Assembly: GCA_051888595.1 (NCBI GenBank)
Contig: JBJFBU010000004.1
Location: 1-30,577 of the forward strand
Reading direction: 5' to 3'
Origin: Candidatus Gastranaerophilaceae bacterium
GTDB lineage: Bacteria > Cyanobacteriota > Vampirovibrionia > Gastranaerophilales > Gastranaerophilaceae
Length of the DNA: 30,577 bases
A model generated the notes under the pieces. The model did no database searches and was not told the origin of the DNA. It worked only from the letters and a program-made list of their open reading frames with translations. How positions within the stretch are numbered: the first letter of the stretch is position 1; every line of letters begins with the position of its first letter. A program made the translations under genes and the position numbers. Shown in pieces: positions 3,621 through 30,577 of this stretch.

Positions 3621-4452
3621 TAATTTAAGCTTACAAAGAAATAAAAAGCCTGTTAAGTTAGGTAACATATCTTTGTTACAACCAACTTTAGCAGAAATTG
3701 ACGATATAGGTTGGGATATTTATCAAAAATATTTATATATCATAATATCTAATTCAAAAGATATTGCAGATATATTATGGTTTGAATATAAGATTTGGTA
3801 TGAAGATATAAAGGACGAATGGGATTTTTTTGTTCAGAAATGTGTATCTGGAACAAAAGAAGTAAAAATAAGAACTATAGATGGAAGAACTGTTGTTGGT
3901 ATAGGTATATTAGATGATTTTAGAGATGCTATAAATTTTTTTCTTCATACAAGTGGAGAGTTTGTTGTTATGGATAAAAAACAAGGTAATAAACAAGAAG
4001 TATATTTGTGTAATGTTACACCTATTGACGATGAAGATAATATATATTTTTTAGATGTAGATAACTTTAAATTAACTTGTGCTTTTTATCACATATTAGT
4101 TGAGTATTTAGAAAAAATAAACTGGATAATTAGAGATTATACGTTTATACATGGTGGGACTAAACGTGCTAAAAAATATATTTTAAAACATGACTATGAA
4201 GAAAGAAAAAAGAAGCCGAAGGAATCAAATATTACTATCGATAGCATTGTTTCATCTATTATTGCTAAATCATGCCCTTATAATGATATTTGGGATTATC
4301 CTATTTATATGATTTATGATTTATATTATAGGCATGTTAAAATAGACGATTGGAAAAATACAATGGATGCACTTCATAATGGTTGTATTGATGTTAAAAA
4401 AACTCCAATTAAATGGGAAGAAATAAATTGGAGTAATGTTATAAAACAATAG
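3610..4452 (+). CDS. Phage morphogenesis protein of unknown function
   Basis: 280-aa ORF overlapping the previous gene, directly upstream of the tail tube gene. Confidence 0.55.
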   Translation: MEFNNLSLQRNKKPVKLGNISLLQPTLAEIDDIGWDIYQKYLYIIISNSKDIADILWFEYKIWYEDIKDEWDFFVQKCVSGTKEVKIRTIDGRTVVGIGILDDFRDAINFFLHTSGEFVVMDKKQGNKQEVYLCNVTPIDDEDNIYFLDVDNFKLTCAFYHILVEYLEKINWIIRDYTFIHGGTKRAKKYILKHDYEERKKKPKESNITIDSIVSSIIAKSCPYNDIWDYPIYMIYDLYYRHVKIDDWKNTMDALHNGCIDVKKTPIKWEEINWSNVIKQ

Positions 4453-22758: not shown

Positions 22759-23541
22759 ATGAGTACATTATATCCAGATTATGATAACAAATTTCCATCA
22801 GAGGGTATAGATGATTTTGAAAAATTTATTGACCCTGATATAGCTTCAATACAGGCTATAAATCTATATTATCAATATTTTGATGCTGGAAATATATCGA
22901 GCGCAAATTCTGTATTAGAAAATAATCCACAATTAAAAAGAATGATTATTAATGCAGAGAATCTTAATAAATTGAGAGATGCTATAATGTCTATTGAACA
23001 ATTTTATTTAGACGATATTCAGCAATATCTTGTAAATATAGTAAAATACAGAAATGAATATGCGGCGAATGTAAAATATAATAAATATGATGTTGTTGCA
23101 TATGGAAGTGGTACTACAAAAGAGGTATATATGTGCGTATCAACATCGACACCTATAGGAACGTCACCAACTAATACAACATATTGGATTCCTTTAGCTG
23201 TTAAAGGAGATAAAGGTGATGCTGGTATAGGATTGTCTTTTCAAGGTGAATATAATCCATTTAAGACGTATCAAGCAAATGATTGTGTTCAATATTTAGG
23301 AAGTTTGTATGGAGCATTACAAGAAACAACAGGCAATACACCTACTGAGGGTGGAAGCAATGATTACTGGGCGTTAGCTTGGAGTTTTCAAATACCTGAT
23401 AATTACATAACGATGAATATGTTATCAACAGAAGTACAACAAGCCATTTTAAATGCTGGAATATTTAGTGATGATACCACAAGTGCAACTTATAGATTTG
23501 GTGCAGATAACGGTGTGGTATATATAGAACGAATATCTTAA
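22759..23541 (+). CDS. Tail fibre/receptor-binding-like protein with two small carbohydrate-binding-type repeats (start likely ATG 22759)
   Basis: RBS aaaggag. EYAANVKYNKYDVVAY and EYNPFKTYQANDCVQYLGSLY repeats flank the collagen-like KGDKGDAG. Confidence 0.6.
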   Translation: MSTLYPDYDNKFPSEGIDDFEKFIDPDIASIQAINLYYQYFDAGNISSANSVLENNPQLKRMIINAENLNKLRDAIMSIEQFYLDDIQQYLVNIVKYRNEYAANVKYNKYDVVAYGSGTTKEVYMCVSTSTPIGTSPTNTTYWIPLAVKGDKGDAGIGLSFQGEYNPFKTYQANDCVQYLGSLYGALQETTGNTPTEGGSNDYWALAWSFQIPDNYITMNMLSTEVQQAILNAGIFSDDTTSATYRFGADNGVVYIERIS

Positions 23542-23593
23542 AGAACTTTTAAGTTCTTTAAGTGTATATTATATTATTATTATTATATTATTT
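23537..23593. repeat. 26-bp near-perfect palindrome followed by a TAT/TATTA microsatellite
   Basis: cttaaagaactt-tt-aagttctttaag (23537-23562), then tatattatattattattattatattatt. Confidence 0.8.
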
Positions 23594-23608: not shown

Positions 23609-24001
23609 ATGAGAGAATTAAGAACAATGGAAATAGCTAGAAAAGACAGACATGATGCAAGTGAAATTACAGACGTAAAATATGTTTATATTGATAAATA
23701 TGGTATTTTACACGCTAGTGATTTTGAAGATTATGCTTATGCTTATGGTAACGGTAAATATGTGGCAACAGATGAGGTTGGCACAGCTCATGGATTTATT
23801 GTAATCAACGATGTACAAGTTAAAATTTATGGTGCTGGCGAAGGTTATGTTTACAGAAGTAAGGAAGCCAAGGAAAAAGACATTAGACTTAATGTAACAG
23901 ATGGTGTTATCGAGGGTACTACTTTTGAACACGTCACTCTTTTACCTGAGATAAAAGAAGTATATAGAATTGCCAATGAATTTTATATGATGTTAAAGTG
24001 A
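23609..24001 (+). CDS. Hypothetical protein
   Basis: Strong RBS aaggagg, 130 aa, no motif recognised. Confidence 0.75.
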   Translation: MRELRTMEIARKDRHDASEITDVKYVYIDKYGILHASDFEDYAYAYGNGKYVATDEVGTAHGFIVINDVQVKIYGAGEGYVYRSKEAKEKDIRLNVTDGVIEGTTFEHVTLLPEIKEVYRIANEFYMMLK

Positions 24002-24065: not shown

Positions 24066-24461
24066 ATGATAGATTTATTAATAACTAATTTAACACACAT
24101 TGGAATTGCTGTTGGTTTATTTGCAATAGCTTATTTTGCTAATATATGTTTTAGTATATATTATAATATTAAAATATTACAACAAGATTTTGATATAACA
24201 AAATTAAGAAATGGTATATTAAAATCAATAGCAATATGTTTAGGTATTAGTGCTTTAACAATTGTGATAACTTTACTCCCTACATTCTTAGAAGTAATGG
24301 GAATAGCATTACCAGAAGATTTTATAAGCAGTTTTAATATTATTGCAATAATTGGAGCGTTCTCAAACAGTATATATAAGTATATCAAAGAAGCATTTGT
24401 TACATTGCAAGATATTTTAAACCCACAAGAAGGCTCAGATAAACCGAAAGAAGTGGACTAA
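24066..24461 (+). CDS. Probable holin
   Basis: Three hydrophobic segments, charged C-terminal tail (PQEGSDKPKEVD), immediately upstream of the lysin. Confidence 0.7.
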   Translation: MIDLLITNLTHIGIAVGLFAIAYFANICFSIYYNIKILQQDFDITKLRNGILKSIAICLGISALTIVITLLPTFLEVMGIALPEDFISSFNIIAIIGAFSNSIYKYIKEAFVTLQDILNPQEGSDKPKEVD

Positions 24462-24464
24462 ATA

Positions 24465-25094
24465 ATGACAAATTATGAATTAGTTGAATTTGCAAAATCT
24501 AAAATTGGCACACCTTATGTATATGGTATGAAAGGTGAAATTCTAACATTAGAAAAATATAAAGAACTAAGAGCTGAATATGGATATAGGATATGGAATA
24601 GTGATATAAAAAAAGTTGGAAAAATTTGTTGTGACTGTTCTGGTCTTATTTCTTGGGCAACTGGTATTATGAGAAGTTCTACAAATTATAAAGAAATTGC
24701 TGATGAAATACACTCTATAAGCACAATAAAAAATGCACCAATAGGTGCTTTAGTTTGGAAACAAGGTCATATAGGTATATATACAGGAATAGAAAATGGA
24801 ATACCATATTATATAGCAGAAGATGGTTCTGCATATAACTGTAGAAAAAATAAAATAAGTAATGCAAGTTTTACACATTGGTTCTTGTGTAAAGATATCG
24901 AATATATAAAAAAAGAAGAGAAGGATGAATATATGGTAACTCAGGCAAAAATAAAGGTTAATGGAAAAGAATATATAGTTAATCGTATATTATATAATGA
25001 CAAAAATTATATCGAATTAAGAAGCTTAGAACAGGCTGGTTTTAAAGTCGATTATATCAATTCAACACCAATATTAGATTCGCCAAAGGAGTAA
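24465..25094 (+). CDS. Endolysin: NlpC/P60-type cysteine hydrolase with a short C-terminal binding domain
   Basis: FAKSKIGTPYVYG, CDCSGLISW (catalytic C), GHIGIY (H). C-terminal KIKVNGKEY..KNYIELRSLEQAGFKVDY. No signal peptide. Confidence 0.8.
   Translation: MTNYELVEFAKSKIGTPYVYGMKGEILTLEKYKELRAEYGYRIWNSDIKKVGKICCDCSGLISWATGIMRSSTNYKEIADEIHSISTIKNAPIGALVWKQGHIGIYTGIENGIPYYIAEDGSAYNCRKNKISNASFTHWFLCKDIEYIKKEEKDEYMVTQAKIKVNGKEYIVNRILYNDKNYIELRSLEQAGFKVDYINSTPILDSPKE
24918..24935 (+). promoter_or_regulatory. Candidate internal RBS and in-frame ATG (24933) inside the endolysin gene
   Basis: gagaagga-tgaatat-ATG GTA ACT CAG at the catalytic/binding-domain linker; 24933 is in frame with 24465. 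Confidence 0.55.
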
Positions 25095-25099
25095 ATGAT

Positions 25100-26104
25100 A
25101 TGAGAAAAGAAATGGAATTAAACTTACAGAAATCACCAGAAAGTGAATTAGATTGGCACGTTTCTAATATATTAACAGCCCCTTCAAAATTACCTAGTCA
25201 ATATAGTTTAAAACAGTATTGTGGAAAAGTTATGAATCAAGGAGCTGCTGGTCTTTGTCACTCTTATGCTGGTGCGGCATTTAAAGAAATACAAGAACAT
25301 ATTGAAACTTCTAAAGAGATGAATATGTCTCCAATAGCATTAGCTAAAGAAGTAAAAAAAATAGATGGACTTCCTACGCAAGAAGGAAGTGATATTTTGA
25401 GTGTGTTCAGGGTACTTTATAAACAAGGAACTATAAAAGATGAAGACTATCCTTACACTTATGAACCCAAAAGTCTTAAATTTAAAGACGTTGAAAACGA
25501 AGAAAATCTTCCTCATTATAGAATTGGAAATTATGCTAGATGTGATACTCTTGAAGATATTAAATATGCCTTAACTCTTAATAAACCAGTAGAAATAGGA
25601 ATAATCTGTTTTAGTAATTTCTATGATATTTGGGATGACCCTTTCTGCCCCATGCCTAAAGGAAGGTCGATAGGTGGTCATGCCATGACTGTTGTTGGGT
25701 ATGATGATAATTTAACGCATAAATATTCTGACGGAACAACTTGTACTGGCTATCTCCATGTTTTAAATTCATGGGGTGAAGAATGTGGCGATGGTGGATT
25801 TATTTATATTCCTTATGATTATATAAATAAAAAGACTAATGATGAATTAAAAATGTCTTATATGCCAGATGCTTATACAGGAATTGATATTCAAAATGAC
25901 CCTATAAACCAAGATGTCGTGGAAATGTGGATTGGTAAAAATGAGATGGTCGTTAATGATAAAACAGTAATTCTTGACCAAGCACCTGAAATTGACCCTG
26001 AAACTTCAAGAGCTTTAATTCCAGTAAGATGGGTAGAATCTTTAGGCTATAAAGTTTATTGGAATGATAAAGAAAAGAAAATTACAATATTAAAATATAA
26101 TTAA
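25100..26104 (+). CDS. Papain-like (C1A) cysteine peptidase fused to a C-terminal copper-amine-oxidase-N-terminal-type domain
   Basis: NQGAAGLCHSYA (oxyanion Q and catalytic C), GGHAMTVVGYDD (H), LNSWGEECGDGG (N). C-terminal MWIGKNEMVVND..LDQAPEI..RALIPVRWVESLGYKVYW. No signal peptide. RBS aaggag. Confidence 0.9.
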   Translation: MRKEMELNLQKSPESELDWHVSNILTAPSKLPSQYSLKQYCGKVMNQGAAGLCHSYAGAAFKEIQEHIETSKEMNMSPIALAKEVKKIDGLPTQEGSDILSVFRVLYKQGTIKDEDYPYTYEPKSLKFKDVENEENLPHYRIGNYARCDTLEDIKYALTLNKPVEIGIICFSNFYDIWDDPFCPMPKGRSIGGHAMTVVGYDDNLTHKYSDGTTCTGYLHVLNSWGEECGDGGFIYIPYDYINKKTNDELKMSYMPDAYTGIDIQNDPINQDVVEMWIGKNEMVVNDKTVILDQAPEIDPETSRALIPVRWVESLGYKVYWNDKEKKITILKYN

Positions 26105-28596: not shown

Positions 28597-29088
28597 TTAA
28601 AATAATGAATTAGATGTTTGGATTTGTTCATATGATTTGCAATCAAATATAACGTCTTTTATGTAATCTTTTTGTTTTAAAACATTTCTGACTGCTTCGT
28701 TGTAGTAATTTCTTACCTTACCTGTTTTTGTATACGAAATATTCGCATAACCACCAAACCACTTACCTTTATATGTAGCACAGAACCCACATAATACTAC
28801 AATGTGTTTAGGATATAAATTTGGATTCTTTTTAACATCCGTATAAAAATCTTTTGTCATGACTATGTCGTTTAACGGATTCCATCCATTTTGTATTTGT
28901 TTCCAGAATTCTATTAAATACTCATTATTGTCATATCCAAATTTATTATCACAAACTATGTGTTGAATTAAATTGCCCCCCCCAACAAAAGGCTCTATAT
29001 AAGTAGAGATTTGTTGTTCTTGTATTATATTGTTAATAATACTGCTTATATCTTTTGCAACTCTGCTTTTACTTTCAACATATTTCAT
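28597..29088 (-). pseudogene. Truncated Dam-family (D12-class) adenine methyltransferase: N-terminal part only
   Basis: MKYVESKSR (usual G replaced by E) and YIEPFVGGGN (motif I). The frame stops at SNSLF*, exactly where xYCDPPY should follow. No DPPY codons in the downstream 86 nt. Confidence 0.75.
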
Positions 29089-29097
29089 ATTTACACC

Positions 29098-29922
29098 TTA
29101 TTTCAAATACAAACTTTCGTAAACAATACTGTCTTTGGATTTACCGATAGTTCTTTTAAAACTGCTATTACCGCTTAATAAATATTCATGCTTTGTATAT
29201 ATATCTTTTGGAACATCATATGTATTATTTTCTTTTCCGCTAATACCATCAAAAGATAGTGCATATTTACAAGACAGGCTTCTTAACCAATCCCATAACT
29301 TTTCATAATCAATTGTGCCATAATACATACCTTTTGTATTTGCGTAAGGTGGGTCGCAATATACAAAATCGTCATCTTTCGGCTTGATTTTTTCATAAGA
29401 ACAAGTTATAAACTTAACATTATTCTTATTTAATAAATTGCTCCATTCGTAAATAATTTTTTCTAAAGCAACAGGGGTAATACCATTTCTTGTTATATGG
29501 AATGAATTATTAAACTCTTCATTACGATTATATCTTGGCATACCATTAGTCGTGGTTCTCATAATAAACATGAAATCTAATGGATTATGATTTTTATTAT
29601 ACCTTTCTCTAACCGTATTAAAATATTCTTTCTTGCGTTGTTTATTGTTATCTGCATTTAATTCGTTCCATAATTTCTTATAATGTGAAGAAACTTATTC
29701 AGGATGACTAATAATCTCGTTCCATAAATCAATTAATCCTTTGTTTATATCACTACAAATATAATGGTTTACTTTTATGTTACTGCTCAATAATCTTCTG
29801 AGGACTGACGCTCCCCCACAAAACGGTTCATAATATGTATCAATTTCTTTTGGGAAATATGTCAATATGTTTTCTGCCTGACTTCTTTTACTTCCACTCC
29901 ATTTAATTACTGGTTCAAACAT
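29098..29922 (-). pseudogene. Dam-family adenine methyltransferase interrupted by a single in-frame TAA (29697-29695)
   Basis: IKWSGSKR..YYEPFCGGASV then HPE*VSSHYKKLWNEL...YFNTVRERYN..PLDFMFIMR continues in the same frame to VYCDPPY. Joins track ORFs 29695..29961 and 29098..29571. Confidence 0.85.
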
Positions 29923-29977
29923 TTTTCCACCCAGAGCAATTAGTATGCTTACACCTTTCATACTTATACTTTTTTTA

Positions 29978-30577
29978 TTAATAATTAGTTATTAATATTT
30001 CTTTATCTTCTTCTTTATTATTTTTATGATAATTACAATTATTATAATTTATATTTAAAATATGTAGATTATATTTGTCTTTCCAAGAATCTAAAACAGG
30101 ATTTTTGTATTTTAGATTGTTTGAAAGAGCAAATTTAATACCCTTTTCATTAAAACCATCTAAAATGTTTAATAAATCTATTTCGTCTTTTTCGTTCCAT
30201 CCATTTTGTTCGTTATAAGTTGCTGTACTGTTATAGTACGGAGGGTCACAATAAACAAAATCACTATCTGTTAAAATTTGATATGGAAAACATCTAAAGT
30301 CAAAGTTTGTGAAATCACATTCTAATCTTTGCAAGCTTTCAACAAATAATATAAATCTTTTTCTTAACATCGGATTAAAGGAACTTCTATTTTTACCAAA
30401 AGGCATATTATATTTTCCTTCATGATTAAATCTTATCTGATTATTAAAGGCATAACATAATAATATATAAAAAACCATAGGATTTGAATTTTGATTATTA
30501 TAATAATCTCTTAAATTATTATAACCATCTTGATTCTCTTTGGATAACTTAAATCTATAAATAATATTGTCTGCTTC
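29978..30577 (-). CDS. T4-Dam-like adenine methyltransferase, 5'-truncated by the window edge
   Basis: Frame is open to the window end (EADNIIYRFKLSKENQDGYNNLRDYYN..PMVFYILL..AFNNQIRFN..G.YNMPFG). FVYCDPPY, FALSN and KEILITNY motifs. Confidence 0.85.
   Translation of the reverse strand, partial: EADNIIYRFKLSKENQDGYNNLRDYYNNQNSNPMVFYILLCYAFNNQIRFNHEGKYNMPFGKNRSSFNPMLRKRFILFVESLQRLECDFTNFDFRCFPYQILTDSDFVYCDPPYYNSTATYNEQNGWNEKDEIDLLNILDGFNEKGIKFALSNNLKYKNPVLDSWKDKYNLHILNINYNNCNYHKNNKEEDKEILITNY

Follow-up and report, generated by a model that had tools for sequence, protein, structure and literature searches.

A leaderless papain-family protease with a putative wall-binding module in phage lysis cassettes

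Introduction

Models of phage lysis in Gram-positive hosts normally end at a holin and an endolysin. Cwp84 of Clostridioides difficile, a protease of the papain family (C1), is a housekeeping enzyme of the host that carries a signal peptide, a propeptide, a lectin-like domain and CWB2 repeats. Xylellain-type enzymes of the papain subfamily C1A have been acquired by tailed phages, in a report that does not address lysis, walls or function (Kordis and Turk 2023, PMC10380794). Here we describe a lysis cassette in a stretch of 30,577 nucleotides (nt), referred to below as the window, which makes up all of contig C4 in a genome bin of 1.2 Mb (58% complete) assigned to Candidatus Gastranaerophilaceae. 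The third gene of this cassette encodes a C1A protease of 334 amino acids (aa) that ends in a Cu_amine_oxidN1 repeat. Our literature searches returned no description of a C1 protease in a lysis cassette, nor of a protease-assisted lysis cassette.

An earlier note on this DNA, made from the letters alone, had proposed a three-part lysis system. Both enzymes were to leave through the holin and dock on the same envelope ligand, and the protease was to open a protein layer, with Cwp84 as its model; the note knew of no described cassette of this kind, which our searches bear out. We analysed the three proteins, their relatives and the gene neighbourhoods in which a C1 peptidase of this type occurs.

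Results

A xylellain-type protease with a putative wall-binding repeat

The cassette consists of three open reading frames (ORFs) on the plus strand, at 24066-24461 (131 aa), 24465-25094 (209 aa) and 25100-26104 (334 aa), with 3 nt between the first two and 5 nt between the last two. They encode a holin-like membrane protein, a lysin of the NlpC/P60 fold and the protease. The protease matched the Pfam families Peptidase_C1 (PF00112; 52.3 bits against a cut-off of 20.7, residues 40-240) and Cu_amine_oxidN1 (PF07833; 41.8 bits against 24.2, residues 270-330). The second match covers model positions 49-108 of 108 and corresponds to one repeat, the second half of the model; relatives of the protease have full or double domains.

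The catalytic domain occupies 25190..25885 on the plus strand and is assigned to the xylellain type by PF00112, by its invariant residues and by structure and profile matches. Its catalytic residues are Gln47 (25238-25240), Cys53 (25256-25258), His194 (25679-25681) and Asn223 (25766-25768). All four are invariant across 13 homologues of the same architecture. Among 112 wider relatives no exchange of Cys, His or Asn occurs, and 106 have the Gln; their catalytic Cys lies at a median position of 53, as in the protease itself. The domain is preceded by an N-terminal extension of about 30 aa (25100..25189, plus strand) with a conserved SP.S.RDW motif, in which Asp18 is conserved in 101 of the 112 relatives. 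The protease gave no match to the Pfam inhibitor_I29 prodomain, and the extension may be a short pro-segment with an inhibitory role. A hydropathy scan found no hydrophobic segment at the N-terminus. The C-terminal Cu_amine_oxidN1 repeat, putatively wall-binding, lies at 25907..26089 on the plus strand.

The AlphaFold model of the protease had a predicted local distance difference test (pLDDT) score of 89. Its best solved match in Foldseek was xylellain (PDB 3OIS; template modelling (TM) score 0.79, probability 1.0), and cathepsins and mite allergens including Der p 1 also matched with probability 1.0. The sequence profile aligned to xylellain over residues 7-247 with an E-value of 6.9e-37, versus 2.4e-15 for the Cwp84 chains 4D59 and 4CI7. 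Sequence and model together indicate that the protein is a complete, short, xylellain-type C1A cysteine endopeptidase and not a Cwp84-like enzyme. Thus, the tight linkage of holin, lysin and protease, the intact Gln/Cys/His/Asn set, the missing signal peptide and the copper-amine-oxidase-N-type C-terminus that the earlier note had read from the sequence were all recovered, while its choice of Cwp84 as a model was not.

Relatives of the protease are leaderless and exchange their C-terminal modules

A library-wide profile search with the protease returned 1,831 cluster representatives at E <= 1e-30, of which we analysed the 112 nearest. Every one of them matched the Peptidase_C1 profile, and 109 had no hydrophobic N-terminus (three had one). 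Cu_amine_oxidN1 was found in 60, SPOR in 12, SLH in three, PASTA in one and a glucosaminidase domain in one (P0431, in which it is fused to the C1 domain). In place of the single repeat of the window protease, relatives thus carry two full repeats, SPOR, SLH or PASTA. Twenty of the 112 also touched Peptidase_C39_2. Scanning 185,579 species genomes for patterns taken from the protease alignment gave no confirmed relative. Only four of 50,697 phage records, mostly of cultured phages, contained a related C1 domain, and just one of the four is a cultured phage with that domain in a lysis gene. One relative (P0310, 694 aa) has a LAGLIDADG_3 domain inserted between the C1 catalytic domain and the SPOR domain, which may be an intein or a homing-endonuclease insertion.

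The Cu_amine_oxidN1 module is not restricted to proteases: it also occurs on an Amidase_2 lysin (L029), and it is listed among the predicted wall-binding modules of Paenibacillus hydrolases (preprint 10.64898/2026.09.23.753664). As a test for a shared host ligand we looked for other proteins with this module in the bin and found only the phage gene. Among 30 relative genomes the module exceeded the Pfam cut-off in two others, G020 and G014, the latter of the same genus and in a secreted protein. In G014 (contig C114, locus L014) the ORF at 913-1782 encodes 289 aa, in which a signal-peptide-like N-terminus precedes Cu_amine_oxidN1, and it adjoins a 140-aa ORF that on inspection resembles a ToxN/AbiQ-type toxin.

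A leaderless protein with a wall-binding module reaches the wall only once the membrane is breached, by lysis or by a holin. Such breach-dependent access is the logic of holin-dependent endolysins, and for this reason we regard the 334-aa protein with high confidence as a wall-targeted lysis enzyme.

The C1 peptidase recurs in lysis cassettes of unrelated phages

In 10 of the 13 contexts examined, the C1 peptidase either belongs to a lysis cassette or forms part of a lysin fusion, which confirms the linkage to lysis genes in relatives that the earlier note had wanted surveyed. Across contexts its partners comprise four holin families, XhlA and six types of wall hydrolase (NlpC/P60, Amidase_3, Amidase_2, Peptidase_M15_4, glucosaminidase and a GH25-like muramidase). 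The gene order in the window is holin-like protein, NlpC/P60 lysin and C1. In L002/L003/L004 and L005/L006 it is holin-like protein, an Amidase_3 lysin with a near-identical C-terminal module, and C1. In close relatives (67-69% identity), found on contigs 114-118 kb long, both the holin-like gene and the protease are retained together with an Amidase_3 lysin, which, judged from the sequences, represents a clean swap of the lysin's catalytic domain.

Other contexts combine the peptidase with different partners. L007 carries Amidase_2, two small ORFs and C1, and the prophage L008 has Phage_holin_5_2, C1, an 84-aa ORF, Peptidase_M15_4 and an integrase. On the viral contigs L022-L027 (55% guanine plus cytosine) Phage_holin_4_1 and M15_4 are followed by a C1 protein with two Cu_amine_oxidN1 repeats. 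L028 shows XhlA, a fusion of C1 with glucosaminidase and Phage_holin_6_1; L029 shows an Amidase_2 lysin with Cu_amine_oxidN1, two small ORFs and C1 with SPOR. The TAG-recoded phage L030 has M15_4, C1 and Cu_amine_oxidN1; its recorded protein (787-1990) was matched only with TAG read as Gln, and C1 and Cu_amine_oxidN1 were called as separate genes. Finally, the cultured Alicyclobacillus phage MMB025 encodes an "endolysin" of 753 aa in which C1 is joined to Big_1, a glycoside-hydrolase-like domain and PG_binding_1.

The C1 domain is thus found before, between or after holin and lysin, or fused into lysins. This linkage recurs in unrelated phage backbones and is therefore not due to chance. The C1 peptidase is never the sole wall hydrolase: each cassette seen has a separate or fused peptidoglycan hydrolase. 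The sister phages L035 and L037 have an NlpC/P60 domain 64-78% identical to that of the window with a different C-terminal module, and they have no protease, showing that the protease is a dispensable accessory gene. In the lineage of the window the protease co-occurs with the Cu_amine_oxidN1-type lysin module. A few genes upstream of their lysis cassettes, L035 (394-3016) and L037 (382-3006) have one or two radical-SAM genes.

The lysin shares its module type with the protease in the lineage of the window

The catalytic domain of the lysin (24465..24908, plus strand) is assigned to the NlpC/P60 fold by invariant motifs, modelled fold and homologues. The motifs DCSGL and GHIGIY are invariant across 25 homologues, as are Cys58 (24636-24638) and His102 (24768-24770). 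The match to Pfam NLPC_P60 (PF00877) was below threshold (E 0.08, 13.4 bits against a cut-off of 23), and a precomputed PF00877 match exists for three of the 120 lysin homologues listed. The lysin profile matched no PDB sequence, so the fold is shown by modelling: the model (pLDDT 89.6) had NlpC/P60 domains as its best Foldseek matches (3I86, 6B8C and 8ER5, TM 0.64-0.71 by target). The catalytic domain is 49-50% identical to the N-terminal portion of lysins from Enterocloster phages. In a nucleotide search of the cassette against cultured phages, the sole match was 81 nt long and fell in Enterocloster lysin genes.

The C-terminal module of the lysin (24936..25079, plus strand), putatively wall-binding, consists of one Cu_amine_oxidN1-type repeat. 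A profile-profile alignment (hhalign) of its last ~50 residues with the C-terminus of the protease gave a probability of 96% and an E-value of 4.8e-9, so that the kinship of the two modules suspected in the earlier note holds. The module is nearly identical on the Amidase_3 lysins of L002 and L005 and occurs in two to three tandem copies in P0019 and P0041. The further proposal that both enzymes use the same ligand fits the module type shared in the lineage of the window and is not general: in L008 and L025 the lysin has a different C-terminal module, and in L029 the lysin carries Cu_amine_oxidN1 versus SPOR on the protease.

This different module, of about 60 aa (EVP.WG ... LSEDMLR ... DR.G), is common to NlpC/P60 and Peptidase_M15_4 lysins. 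We found it in L008 (4840-5052), in L025 (3800-4010) and at the C-termini of P0022, P0025, P0027, P0052 and P0071. We considered it as an SLH-like module and dropped this assignment; it matched no Pfam family even at an E-value of 10, and it is probably an undescribed wall-binding domain.

The holin-like gene and a small neighbouring ORF

The 131-aa protein (24066..24461, plus strand) is called holin-like for its hydropathy and its position directly upstream of the lysin. A hydropathy scan showed two strong transmembrane segments, a weaker one and a charged C-terminus. No Pfam, NCBIfam or annotated PHROG family matched the protein, and hhalign found no similarity to a bona fide Phage_holin_4_1 protein. 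In a comparison of language-model features (ESM-atlas), 91 of its 100 best matches fell in one set (score 0.92), in which the listed cluster is named "Holin family protein" and 16% of the members have PF05105 (Phage_holin_4_1). Homologues in L002 and L005 (55-61% identity) hold the equivalent position.

Upstream of it, a 130-aa ORF (23609..24001, plus strand) accompanies lysis cassettes. It matched no Pfam, PHROG or NCBIfam family and is homologous to the 84-aa ORF (4194-4448) between protease and lysin in L008 (37% identity over 57 aa, E 1e-7). ORFs of 130-134 aa hold its position in L002, L005 and L035 (3433-3837 in L035). This small protein, with the motifs YIDK.G and G.GEGY, recurs beside lysis cassettes in unrelated phage backbones and could be a further lysis-associated factor.

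Phage backbone and host

The window is a piece of a phage of roughly 100 kb, with relatives on contigs of 114-118 kb. A plus-strand tail module precedes the cassette and encodes a tape measure protein of 2,562 aa, a DUF5048 baseplate protein and a tail fibre. Just past the tail-fibre gene lies a palindromic hairpin (23537..23562, 11-bp stem) that is terminator-like on both strands and may set off the lysis unit from the tail operon. The protease gene, downstream of the tail genes, is the last of the late operon: past 26104 the coding strand flips, and so does the skew of G over C.

The window contains no GATC site (76 expected), no CCGG, no CGCG and a single GGCC. In the remainder of the bin GATC occurs at 0.19 of expectation. 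On the minus strand at 28597-30478, four successive ORFs each match part of a D12-class N6-adenine methyltransferase profile, covering, in minus-strand order, profile positions 110-246, 1-63, 113-202 and 4-88. Splitting, permutation or interruption of methyltransferase genes may account for them, in a phage without GATC sites.

We consider it likely that the host is a monoderm member of the Clostridia rather than of the Gastranaerophilaceae. The genus of the bin is diderm: Omp85/BamA is encoded by 15 of 15 genomes, and SLH proteins by 18 of 18. Searches of 150 other genomes of the order for the lysin family, and of 20 other genomes of the genus for the protease, found neither. The bin contained no CRISPR array and no spacer-like matches, and 200 Gastranaerophilaceae genomes searched at the DNA level yielded nothing beyond chance AT-rich matches and a conserved methyltransferase gene, with no spacer-like link. 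The closest cultured relatives of the neck, the baseplate hub and the lysin are Enterocloster, Enterococcus and Bacillus phages, and Lachnospiraceae and Anaerotignum supply the named lysin-family members. The holin families of related cassettes are, we take it, known from Bacillota phages. The tetranucleotide correlation of the contig (0.935) is the lowest among the large contigs of the bin, and the GATC depletion shared by window and bin is not independent of composition-based binning. The placement of a phage contig in a Gastranaerophilaceae genome is probably a binning error; otherwise the host is an unusual one.

Discussion

We propose that the 334-aa protein acts as a third, holin-dependent lysis enzyme. 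It would build up in the cytoplasm, possibly restrained by its conserved N-terminal extension of about 30 aa, and leave through the holin lesions alongside the NlpC/P60 lysin. At the wall it would dock through its repeat, a kind of repeat that the lysin of the same phage also uses, and cleave peptide bonds beyond the reach of the lysin. The preferred substrate would be a protein held at the wall, for example a surface layer (S-layer) or another wall-bound protein mesh. As a result the envelope would disintegrate faster, or virions would not be trapped.

As an overall explanation we favour this proposal, with a wall-held protein as substrate, tentatively and at a little under an even chance. 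The closest relatives in sequence and fold are proteinases (xylellain and cathepsins) and, to our knowledge, all characterised C1A enzymes are proteinases that cut ordinary L-peptide bonds. We also count for a protein substrate that a peptidoglycan hydrolase is always present as well and that the protease gene is dispensable. Several points weigh on the other side. The fusions to glucosaminidase and to a muramidase-like domain with PG_binding_1 follow the pattern of two-activity endolysins, whose two domains both act on peptidoglycan. SPOR, PASTA and PG_binding_1 bind peptidoglycan and so place the enzyme there. The "holin" label of the 131-aa protein is drawn only from topology and position, and three of the 13 contexts (L009, L010 and MW202426) are not clearly lytic. 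Moreover, other families of clan CA, NlpC/P60 and CHAP, are peptidoglycan peptidases (PMC10318531), which makes a change of substrate in C1 conceivable. Of the three-part lysis system in the earlier note, a conserved leaderless cassette member with a putative wall-binding module, as would suit exit through holin lesions, stands, and the protein or S-layer target is conjectural. More broadly, leaderless wall-docked C1A proteases possibly form a new class of phage lysis protein that cuts an envelope protein layer after holin and endolysin have acted, a suggestion that we would not yet call probable. The layer would be an S-layer or wall-bound mesh in a monoderm host or, less likely, SLH-containing outer-membrane tethers in a diderm one.

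The main alternative is a second endolysin, in which C1 would be a new module that cuts stem peptides or cross-bridges of peptidoglycan and complements the NlpC/P60, amidase or M15 lysin, much like cysteine peptidase domains of the CHAP or C39-like type in multi-domain lysins. We take this alternative seriously and, in view of the fusions to a glucosaminidase and to the muramidase-like domain, rate it about as probable as a protein substrate, though somewhat less so overall. The layout of a catalytic domain with a wall-binding module is typical of endolysins, including the swapping of Cu_amine_oxidN1, SPOR, SLH and PASTA. In L028 the fusion of C1 with glucosaminidase fills the lysin slot between XhlA and the holin. 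A weak similarity in fold to mycobacteriophage Lysin A (E 1e-4) also speaks for it. Yet C1 is never the only wall hydrolase of a cassette, and we know of no member of the C1 family that cleaves peptidoglycan. Stem peptides alternate L- and D-residues, a poor fit for papain-type clefts, and the only easy substrates for such enzymes in peptidoglycan are cross-bridges of L-amino acids or glycine. In favour of a second endolysin, the MMB025 gene, with C1 fused to a glycoside-hydrolase-like domain and PG_binding_1, is annotated as an endolysin (PMC13141910), and Peptidase_C39_2, touched by 20 of the 112 relatives, is a catalytic domain listed in endolysin surveys (PMC13284279). Against it, Peptidase_C1 and Cu_amine_oxidN1 both go unmentioned in this survey of endolysins from gut phages, which dates from 2026.

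Alternatively, a protease released at lysis and riding on wall fragments might destroy proteinaceous phage receptors and so spare progeny from binding to debris or infected cells. Its architecture and timing would be the same as in our proposal, and its absence from sister phages is what one expects of an accessory gene that enhances fitness; the conserved placement in the cassette and the glycosidase fusions better fit a direct role in lysis, and we find receptor clearing unlikely. We think it very unlikely that the protease replaces spanins in a diderm host by cutting the SLH-domain tethers between outer membrane and wall. The contig does sit in a bin with an RpoB that shares 91% identity with the one of a named Candidatus Gastranaerophilaceae genome, the genus has the Omp85/BamA and SLH proteins noted above, and GATC is depleted in window and bin alike. 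On inspection, no spanin-like gene lies beside the cassette and the flanking ORFs have no lipoprotein signal, although no dedicated spanin search was made. Against it stands the host evidence from the lysin family, the protease, the spacers, the cultured relatives and the tetranucleotides. Proteases mature the capsid in many phages, and the place of the gene as the last of the late region, behind the tail genes, would suit an enzyme that processes phage proteins, by activating the lysin or maturing the virion, or that enters with the virion. But action in the cytoplasm needs no wall-binding module, and the partner lysins span six unrelated families, which disfavours a specific role in lysin activation. 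Moreover, the gene follows holin and lysin instead of lying among head and tail genes, and its product has no structural-protein domains. We give this reading a slight chance, and an equally slight one to a passenger (moron) gene without any link to lysis. The ends of late operons are common insertion points, and L009 and L010 would fit a passenger; its variable position around holin and lysin, and its fusion into lysins, across unrelated backbones do not.

A papain-family protease with interchangeable wall-binding modules thus recurs in the lysis cassettes of many uncultured phages. If its substrate is protein, it would add a new step to lysis and provide a handle on whether virion release is hindered by S-layers and wall proteins. 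Should it be peptidoglycan, the protease would add a catalytic family that the endolysin survey does not mention, and the Cu_amine_oxidN1 module would perhaps be useful for probes or engineered lysins against anaerobic Clostridia. Modular lysis enzymes as such are known, and there is a fair chance that the protease represents a new functional step in lysis.

How does the protease compare with described systems? Xylellain of Xylella fastidiosa (PDB 3OIS) is its best match in profile and fold and likewise has a short N-terminal extension and no I29 prodomain. Unlike the phage enzyme, it is a cellular single-domain protein without a wall-binding module or any link to lysis. Cwp84 is also a C1 peptidase held at the wall by a dedicated binding region, and it acts on a surface-layer protein. 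Its similarity to the phage protease is, however, no better than that of cathepsins (E 2.4e-15), and the phage protease is leaderless and carries Cu_amine_oxidN1, with no match to CWB2 (PF04122).

Spanins of phages of Gram-negative hosts and LysB of mycobacteriophages share only the logic, that of an extra cassette gene that removes a layer spared by the endolysin. There is no relation in sequence or structure: spanins are membrane proteins and LysB is an esterase, whereas a protein layer as target is hypothetical here. The protease has no hydrophobic segment that could serve as the membrane anchor or lipoprotein signal of a spanin, a family for which no dedicated search was made. In the cultured phage MMB025, the lysis gene for the 753-aa CDS0095, annotated as an endolysin, includes a related C1 domain. 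This domain is 23% identical to the window protease and, unlike it, forms one chain with Big_1, an Rv2525c-type glycoside-hydrolase-like domain and PG_binding_1. Finally, the protease differs from the modular endolysins of phages of Gram-positive hosts, which include two-activity lysins that join CHAP or NlpC/P60 to an amidase or glycosidase and a binding domain, in that C1 is not an established family of peptidoglycan hydrolases and in that it is mostly an extra gene beside a complete lysin. Like these endolysins, it is leaderless, carries a swappable wall-binding module, lies beside a holin and is sometimes fused to a glycosidase.

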